Shown: positions 26,199 through 27,464 of the stretch, piece by piece
Numbering within the stretch: position 1 is the first letter of the stretch
Layout of the letters: each line of letters opens with the position of its first letter
Source: Clostridia bacterium
GTDB lineage: Bacteria > Bacillota > Clostridia > Christensenellales > Aristaeellaceae
Length of the DNA stretch: 31,623 nucleotides
Assembly: GCA_024404275.1 (NCBI GenBank)
Contig: JAKSQG010000002.1
Location: 1 to 31,623 of the forward strand
Direction of reading: 5' to 3'
The notes under the pieces: model-generated
Seen by the model: the letters and a program-made list of their open reading frames with translations, nothing else
Database searches by the model: none
Told to the model about the DNA's origin: nothing
Made by a program: the position numbers and the translations under genes

Positions 26199-27464
26199 AT
26201 GGACCGTTACAAGCTGCTGATCCGGGGCGGAAAGCCCCTTATGGGAGAAACAAGCGTTTTCGGAGGGAAAAACACCTCTGTGGCTGTTCTGCCCGCGACC
26301 CTTCTTTGCGATGAACCCTGCGTGGTGGAAAATCTGCCCGATATTGAAGATATACATGTCATGCGCGATATGCTGGAGCTGCTGGGCTGCGGCATCGTTT
26401 ACGAGCCGCAGGAAAGGCGCATGACCATCGATCCCCGCGGTGCTTCCGGTTATACCGTGCCTTTTCAGTATACACAGCGCATGCGCGCCCGCTATTATCT
26501 GTGGGGCGCGCTGCTGGGCCGCTGCGGCCGCTGTGACGTGGGTTATCCCGGCGGCTGCACCATCGGCAACCGTCCCTTTGAACAGCATATCAAGGGCTTC
26601 ATTGCCCTGGGCGCCAAGGTGGAGGACCGCGGCGGCATGGTGTATGCCGACGGCGAAATGATGGGTGCCGAGGTGTATTTTGACCGTATCACTGTGGGCG
26701 GCACCGTCAATGTGATGCTGGCGGCGGCCAAAGCCCGCGGAAATACCACCATCCACAATGCCGCACGTGAGCCGCATATCGTCGATCTGGCGAACTTCTT
26801 GAATTCCATGGGCGCGCATGTGCGCGGCGCCGGTACCGATACCATCCGTATCCGCGGCGTCGAATATCTGCACAGCACCCGCTATTCCGTCATTCCCGAT
26901 CAGATCGAAACGGGCACGCTGATGATCGCCGCCGCGGCAACGCATGGCGATGTGACCATCCGCGGCTGCATTCCCACCCATATGGAAGCGCTGACCGCCA
27001 AACTGCTGGAGATGGGTGTGCAGGTGACCGATACCGACGATACCATCCGTGTGCGCAGTGACAGCCCCCATCGTGCCGTCAATGTCAAAACGCAGGAGTA
27101 TCCCGGTTTCCCCACCGACCTGCAGCAGCCCATGAGCGCCATGCTGACCTGCGCAAAGGGCAAAAGCAAGGTCATCTAGGCCATTTTTGAAAACCGCTTC
27201 AAGCACCTTAACGAAATGACCCACATGGGTGCCGATGTGCAGATCGTGGATCAGACCGCCATCATTGAAGGGGTGTAGGCCCTGTATGGCGCGCCGGTGA
27301 AGGCCACCGATCTTCGTGCGGGCGCCGCGCTGGTGGTGGCGGGCCTGATGGCGGAGGGCACGACCGAGATTTATGAGCCGGGCTATATTGAGCGCGGCTA
27401 CGAACACATTGAGGATAAGCTGCGCGCTTTGGGCGCGTAGATCTGGCGGGAAGAATTGCCGTGA
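26199..27464 (+). CDS. murA: UDP-N-acetylglucosamine 1-carboxyvinyltransferase containing three in-frame TAG codons
   Basis: ORF 26199..27179 continues in the same frame through TAG 27177-27179 and TAG 27276-27278 with conserved MurA sequence ([13 protein letters not shown]..., [41 protein letters not shown]). After TAG 27438-27440 it reads IWREELP and then TGA 27462-27464. The joined length is 421 codons. A GAGGAG RBS lies upstream. Confidence 0.9.
27177..27179 (+). other. In-frame TAG codon read as sense (murA site 1)
   Basis: ...[27 protein letters not shown]... Confidence 0.85.
27276..27278 (+). other. In-frame TAG codon read as sense (murA site 2)
   Basis: ...[31 protein letters not shown]... 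Confidence 0.85.
27438..27440 (+). other. In-frame TAG near the murA C-terminus, probably sense
   Basis: ...[22 protein letters not shown]. The TGA overlaps the GTG of the next ORF (GTGA at 27461-27464). Confidence 0.6.

Follow-up and report, generated by a model that had tools for sequence, protein, structure and literature searches.

We analysed a 31,623-nucleotide stretch of DNA (the window; contig JAKSQG010000002.1 of assembly GCA_024404275.1, positions 1 to 31,623) from a Clostridia bacterium, in which murA, the gene for UDP-N-acetylglucosamine 1-carboxyvinyltransferase, contains three in-frame TAG codons. The gene content of the window is that of a typical Bacillota chromosome segment (leuS, plsX, rnc, smc, ftsY, murA, a bacterial signal recognition particle (SRP) RNA and a flavin mononucleotide (FMN) riboswitch), and its proteins find their best matches in Clostridia, at 70-88% identity. 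Its nearest matches in a scan of GTDB species representatives are uncultured gut and rumen Clostridia labelled Christensenellales, Candidatus Limiplasma or Aristaeellaceae. The DNA has a guanine-plus-cytosine (GC) content of ~60% and consequently contains many long spurious open reading frames (ORFs). Real frames were chosen by their per-position GC pattern, and most of those chosen are backed by Pfam or by homology.

Other members of the clade were collected from public assemblies by chained exact-protein look-ups. They comprise a sister species with ~90-91% nucleotide identity to the window (JAZRWA010000059.1 from GCA_045599485.1; loci L001, L162, L166 and L167), strains of the window's own species that are 97-98.5% identical to it (L161, L163, L164, L168 and L169, from ENA and Logan assemblies), and a short, more divergent clade contig (L165). 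The clade DNA covered in total is roughly 75 kb, less than 5% of a genome; the gene content also includes acpP, GAPDH and L28. The closest outgroup, locus L002 from roe-deer omasum, has a MurA that is 82% identical. A metagenome scan was also centred on the HD-domain gene; the matches listed were all at most 75% identical and without synteny.

The murA gene and its in-frame TAG codons

The murA gene (26199..27464, + strand) starts with the ATG at 26199 and consists of 421 codons followed by TGA. An earlier note on this DNA had described three in-frame TAGs late in the gene, and they are found on the + strand at codon 327 (27177-27179), codon 360 (27276-27278) and codon 414 (27438-27440) of the frame opened by that ATG; the peptides that the note quoted after each TAG are identical to the translation. 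With X entered for TAG, the translation of 421 residues gives an unbroken match to the Pfam EPSP_synthase/MurA profile PF00275, from residue 9 to residue 408 and from profile position 2 to 417 of 417 (E = 2.8e-88). Residues 5-417 can be aligned with solved MurA structures (3sg1, E = 1e-118), and 32 MurA sequences in the PDB match at E < 1e-40. The active-site motifs of MurA, including ATDLRAG, are present and line up with their counterparts in 3sg1 and 3zh3. In E. coli numbering, we take these motifs to comprise Lys22 in GxKN, Cys115 and Arg120 in PGGCxIGxRP, Asp305 in FPTD and Arg397 in ATDLRA. Because ATDLRA sits downstream of the TAGs at codons 327 and 360, a 326-residue product ending at the first TAG would miss part of the active site.

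Selection on the protein continues beyond the first TAG. Over the whole gene, murA differs from that of the sister species by 72 synonymous and 12 non-synonymous changes, and the 95 codons past the first TAG, with the TAG positions left out, account for 19 synonymous changes and a single non-synonymous one. The claim that the 421-codon MurA is the product is thus borne out by the unbroken profile match, the structural alignment and the 19:1 synonymous excess.

The end of the gene can be placed in the same way. The seven residues past the third TAG, IWREELP, are homologous to the ends of orthologues, such as IVRAPL, IRRESL and IWREPV, which agrees with the resemblance to a MurA C-terminus that had been suggested, and it follows that murA ends at the TGA (27462-27464, + strand). 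This TGA is kept in the sister species, and orthologues do not end at the position of the third TAG. The TGA overlaps a GTG at 27461-27463 (GTGA), from which NCBI starts the next gene, a J-domain/TPR gene (27461-28012, + strand; Pfam DnaJ plus TPR; 183-amino-acid product recorded as MCQ2453017.1). ENA and Logan gene calls instead start it at an ATG 24 nucleotides downstream, giving 175 amino acids. Of the proposed gene junction, therefore, the TGA end holds, and the overlap with the next start is plausible, not proven.

TAG codons in other genes and their probable amino acid

murA is one of five genes in the window that together carry eight in-frame TAGs; the others are ftsY, smc, a gene for a HAD-family hydrolase and a gene resembling spermidine synthases. 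In ftsY (10596..11522, - strand; Pfam SRP54 and SRP54_N) the TAG is codon 124 (11151-11153) and is common to the window, L161 and L162. In smc (11536..15096, - strand) it is codon 203 (14488-14490), which is GAG in the sister species and in L161, at 98% nucleotide identity. The HAD-family hydrolase gene (17221..17880, - strand; Pfam HAD_2 over residues 10-184) has TAG at codon 73 (17662-17664), as has the sister species. The remaining gene (g4374; 4374..5279, - strand) encodes a methyltransferase-fold protein similar to spermine/spermidine synthases, with a weak match to Pfam PF01564, and has TAG at codons 12 (5244-5246) and 169 (4773-4775). The sister species has GAG at both; its own TAG in this gene is at codon 7, a GAA codon in the window. 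In murA, ftsY, smc and the HAD gene, the domain matches run on through the TAGs, and no in-frame TAA or TGA occurs within the window genes.

No flanking motif is common to the TAG sites. At four of the 13 sites for which context was listed, all of them in the window (5244-5246, 4773-4775, 11151-11153 and 27438-27440), TAG is followed by ATC; the resulting TAGATC, to be read as Glu-Ile, holds GATC, and its recurrence may reflect the frequency of Glu-Ile.

The six clade contigs together show 15 distinct in-frame TAG sites, spread over eight genes. Four of these have TAG wherever a clade sequence extends over them: ftsY 124, HAD 73, murA 414 (window, L001, L163, L164 and L165) and codon 256 of a gene for a caspase-family protein. 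The other 11 are polymorphic; in 10 cases the alternative is GAG or GAA, both codons for glutamate (Glu): g4374 codons 7, 12 and 169, smc 203 and 217, murA 271 and 327, aldo-keto reductase 379, caspase-family 330 and chrA 52. At murA 327, for example, L163, L164 and L165 have GAG and L001 has GAA. If the partner could with equal likelihood be any of the eight sense codons one base away from TAG, at least nine such partners in ten would be expected with P ~7e-8, a figure computed on 10 polymorphic sites, ahead of the finding of the eleventh. The exchange between TAG and GAG or GAA has occurred in both directions between the window's species and the sister species. It also separates closely related strains: the smc genes that differ by TAG versus GAG at codon 203 come from 98%-identical strains and show 59 synonymous and 4 non-synonymous differences. 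Synonymous differences far exceed non-synonymous ones in every gene compared, including past the TAGs, and TAG states track strain relatedness.

The corresponding columns in relatives point to the same amino acid. Glu occupies MurA 327 in 80 of 80 orthologues, MurA 271 in 54 of 55, FtsY 124 in 119 of the 120 closest homologues, SMC 217 in 112 of 117, ChrA 52 in 112 of 120 and SMC 203 in 91 of 117 orthologues. ChrA 52 had been picked as a stress test, because a Gln was expected in the motif, but the column is Glu. The columns of murA 360, murA 414 and HAD 73 are variable, with Glu among their residues. At murA 414 Glu is present in L002, and Asp and Glu dominate the orthologues; HAD 73 varies too much in distant homologues to inform, and murA 360 varies freely among orthologues (26 Pro, 15 Glu, 11 Gly, 8 Asp and others). 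In a simple column likelihood, Glu is ahead of Asp by 13 log10 units and of Gln by 16, with a margin of at least 13 over every other amino acid. On these comparisons of sequence, TAG is very likely translated as Glu in the clade. The predicted tryptic peptides with TAG as Glu include VIEAIFENR and ALGAEIWR from MurA, FQEIGR from FtsY and IEPLHEQAQSALK from SMC.

We give almost no credence to another residue, be it glutamine, pyrrolysine or something else. Precedents exist for UAG read as pyrrolysine and as Gln, murA 360 is CAG in two strains, and 8 of 120 homologues have Gln at ChrA 52. Were UAG read as Gln, however, CAG should be the commonest alternative, being an easy C/T transition away, whereas it is found at 1 of 11 polymorphic sites and the 10 that pair with GAG or GAA need a G/T transversion. 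Gln also trails Glu by the 16 log10 units given above, and the gene content is chromosomal, not that of a phage. Pyrrolysine would show no preference for Glu positions, but the TAGs stand at such positions and are swapped with GAG and GAA.

It is also very improbable that the TAGs are untranslated, as pseudogene lesions, assembly or sequencing errors, G-to-T miscalls at modified or damaged guanines, or contamination by a recoded organism or phage would have it. All of the data are metagenome assemblies, G-to-T change is the signature of oxidised guanine and would explain the link to GAG, and contamination is a known cause of false stop-codon reassignments (bioRxiv 10.64898/2026.04.02.715157). 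Yet the same TAGs recur in independent NCBI, ENA and Logan assemblies, with states that follow the relationships of the strains; the genes are free of in-frame TAA and TGA and remain under purifying selection past the TAGs. A G-to-T artefact is further opposed by the lack of a common motif and by some sites at which two to five independent assemblies all have TAG, and contamination by the Bacillota gene content and organisation, the bacterial SRP RNA, the FMN riboswitch and the continued use of TAA as a stop.

Programmed or leaky readthrough specific to one gene was considered and rejected: many genes are affected, their TAGs have no context in common and act as synonyms of GAG, and the 326-amino-acid MurA would be without ATDLRA. 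The earlier note had likewise argued for efficient rather than leaky readthrough, on murA alone, and the comparison of DNA sequences now extends its reading from one gene to a predicted lineage-wide change of codon meaning, and names glutamate as the amino acid. We consider it highly probable that a lineage of uncultured gut and rumen Clostridia has changed UAG from a stop to a glutamate codon, and that its murA is an ordinary, functional, full-length gene in which codons 327, 360 and 414 would be rare Glu codons written as TAG.

Stop-codon use, proposed decoding and the age of the probable change

Among the 23 complete genes of the window, 15 end in TGA and eight in TAA. TAG ends none of ~44 distinct clade genes; the relatives use it for 7.5-10.7% of their stops by the same method, which filters on third-position GC. 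Two earlier methods had given 15% and 4%, figures made unreliable by conserved antisense shadow ORFs. Once shadow frames and upstream stops were removed, no TAG spanned by homology was found in a real gene among ~155 loci of relatives; what looked like genes split by TAG in L002 and L047 proved to be a shadow frame and a stop upstream of the true start. In 19 kb of L002 there is no sense TAG, and L002 ends one gene in a genuine TAG, followed by a stop-rich spacer. Since this closest outgroup uses TAG as a stop, the change to Glu is probably recent and confined to a shallow clade, and the low share of TAG among presumed Glu codons in the window (8 of 689, ~1.2%) fits a recent change.

TAG is also rare out of frame. 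On the sense strand of the window, off-frame TAGs number 3 and 0, against 15.5 and 39.5 expected from codon shuffles. The relatives show the same strong depletion (9 observed and 108 expected in L003-L008), and the idea that it is part of the recoding was rejected, the depletion being common to all relatives (L002-L160). This order-wide avoidance predates the change of code and may have favoured it.

The decoder would be a tRNA-Glu with a CUA anticodon. Its simplest origin would be a duplicated tRNA-Glu(CUC) in which position 36 changed from C to A, and such a copy, reading UAG instead of GAG, would explain why Glu became the new meaning. In E. coli the anticodon contributes to the identity of tRNA-Glu, and the glutamyl-tRNA synthetase (GluRS) of the clade would have to tolerate the C36-to-A change. 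Release factor 1 (RF1) would be lost or no longer competing, since three TAGs in murA together with those in ftsY and smc argue for negligible termination at UAG. The route was probably codon capture, eased by the order-wide rarity of TAG, which makes up at most ~10% of stops and is depleted off frame.

Several observations weigh against a Glu code or leave it less secure. All the sequences compared are metagenome assemblies, and the reading is from DNA alone. The absence of TAG among the ~44 stops is only moderately significant (P ~0.01-0.03). One polymorphic site, murA 360, does not alternate with GAG or GAA: it is TAG in the window and in L163, CAG in L164 and L165, and CCG in L001. Neither ARAGORN nor Rfam finds a tRNA with a CUA anticodon in the window, in 60 loci of relatives or in the ~75 kb of clade DNA, and no release-factor gene was found in that clade DNA or, by a search for the GGQ motif, in 166 sequences (2.0 Mb).

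An array of eight tRNA genes lies next to a GlsB-family gene in both clade species (7471-8200 in L167 and 4646-5373 in L168) and was traced from the end of L166 into L167 and L168. Its order is Arg-TCT, His-GTG, Gln-TTG, Lys-TTT, Leu-TAG, Gly-GCC, Gly-TCC and Lys-CTT, with no tRNA for Glu and none with a CUA anticodon. A 91-nucleotide 'tRNA-Thr' that ARAGORN places inside the GlsB gene is below the Rfam gathering threshold and probably false.

The one alternative that we do not dismiss, although we regard it as unlikely, is ambiguous decoding, in which an amber-suppressor tRNA inserts Glu while RF1 is retained, so that UAG means both Glu and stop, as an intermediate stage. It would suit a codon that is still as rare as TAG is here and a change as young as the TAG stop of the outgroup indicates, and double use of UAG is documented in pyrrolysine-encoding methanogens (PMC12626013). 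Competing termination, however, would multiply losses at the three murA TAGs and add those in ftsY and smc. Ambiguous decoding also fits poorly with TAGs that do not vary between the two species in ftsY, murA, the HAD gene and the caspase-family gene, with new TAGs that arise at invariant Glu positions such as murA 327, and with the lack of any clade gene that ends in TAG. A full change of UAG to Glu would be at an early stage, because TAG makes up ~1% of Glu codons, TAG and GAG still coexist as alternatives within one species and the nearest outgroup keeps TAG as a stop. If so, it is probably the first natural bacterial code in which UAG specifies a standard amino acid, caught early and in a GC-rich genome that shows no obvious reduction.

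Known codes, annotation and implications

UAG has been read by tRNAs in several other settings. Classical amber-suppressor strains (supE-type, inserting Gln) read it by tRNA. The crAss-like and other gut phages that use code 15 translate TAG as Gln with suppressor tRNAs; they share the codon and the gut habitat with the present clade, but theirs are phage genomes and Gln, whereas here the code would be that of a cellular chromosome and Glu. In Blastocrithidia nonstop and in peritrich ciliates, where the release factor is eRF1, both UAA and UAG are reassigned and are decoded by cognate tRNA-Glu with stop-reading anticodons; unlike them, the clade keeps TAA as a stop, as the eight window genes show. 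The amino acid given to UAG in these UAA/UAG-to-Glu eukaryotes is the same (PMC12153298). E. coli strains made free of RF1 and TAG (C321.deltaA and later recoded strains) show that bacterial life is possible with UAG read by tRNA alone (PMC11903333), a man-made state where the present one would be natural.

According to Shulgina and Eddy (2021, PMC8629427), UGA is the codon in all bacterial stop reassignments known, and those listed in PMC13462651 and 10.64898/2026.04.02.715157 are of UGA only. UGA-to-Trp (table 4) and UGA-to-Gly (table 25) in Mycoplasmatales, several endosymbionts, Absconditabacteria/Gracilibacteria and, as recently reported, Eggerthellaceae are likewise changes of a bacterial stop to a standard amino acid, and there too gene callers split or truncate genes. 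The clade differs from these in the codon, UAG, and the amino acid, Glu, in that RF1 and not RF2 is expected to be affected, and in a GC-rich genome (~60%) with no obvious reduction. The 2024 preprint by Kivenson puts the number of codes known in Bacteria at three and describes UAG-to-pyrrolysine in archaea only (bioRxiv 10.1101/2024.09.30.615893). That archaeal code also places UAG inside ordinary prokaryotic genes, barely alters coding density under table 11 and is hard to detect (bioRxiv 10.1101/2024.09.30.615893); it differs in that it inserts a 22nd amino acid and needs pyl genes, whereas the TAGs here stand at Glu positions. A 2026 screen of ~2.7 million assemblies has no TAG reassignment among the known and new bacterial ones that it lists, and it treats TAA/TAG-to-Glu calls as contamination (10.64898/2026.04.02.715157); neither clade assembly is mentioned in the accessible part of its supplement. 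We found no report of a bacterial UAG-to-Glu code in open-access papers and bioRxiv.

The public annotation of the clade genomes would be wrong under a Glu code. The NCBI record for SMC is a 962-amino-acid fragment (MCQ2453003.1), and the 326-amino-acid N-terminal product of murA is absent from the protein collection searched. The numbering of MCQ2452994-MCQ2453018 and the locus tags suggest that about three genes lack a protein record and are probably flagged as pseudogenes. The caspase-family gene encodes a secreted protein of 503 amino acids with a FlgD_ig-like domain (L168 5825-7336; L167 8652-10163); one of its TAGs is common to both species and the second is found in the window's species only, and standard gene callers divide it into two or three pieces.

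Other features lie beside these genes. The FMN riboswitch (Rfam RF00050, 116.8 bits; 18130-18246, + strand) is directly upstream of an ABC transporter operon (~18335-21352) with two permeases and a solute-binding protein, which by Pfam are of the sugar type (BPD_transp_1 and SBP_bac_8); under this riboswitch, the operon may be an unusual uptake system for riboflavin or flavins. The gene for the bacterial small SRP RNA is at 17911-18010 on the - strand (Rfam RF00169, 76 bits), so the ORFs at 17890-18246 and 17981-18742 are not genes. In the sister species, a GIY-YIG/DUF4357 gene is found between the GAPDH and TPM-domain genes (L166 12905-13738, equivalent to L167 14623-15456). Its 90% cluster has 306 members on many unrelated contigs of up to 114 kb, a distribution that points to a mobile or selfish element of wide occurrence.

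A UAG-to-Glu code would lengthen the list of genetic codes. Predictors based on coding density would probably miss it, because coding density is hardly altered. If the reading is true, a stop has been reassigned in a GC-rich genome without obvious reduction, which departs from the usual picture of AT pressure and genome reduction, and the RF1-free, TAG-free state of synthetic biology has a natural counterpart. A natural pair of tRNA(CUA) and GluRS that works in a bacterium could serve engineering. The young lineage and its close relative with the standard code would give an unusually direct view of how a code changes: which of the TAG stops gave way to others, at what point the tRNA appeared and whether RF1 was lost first.

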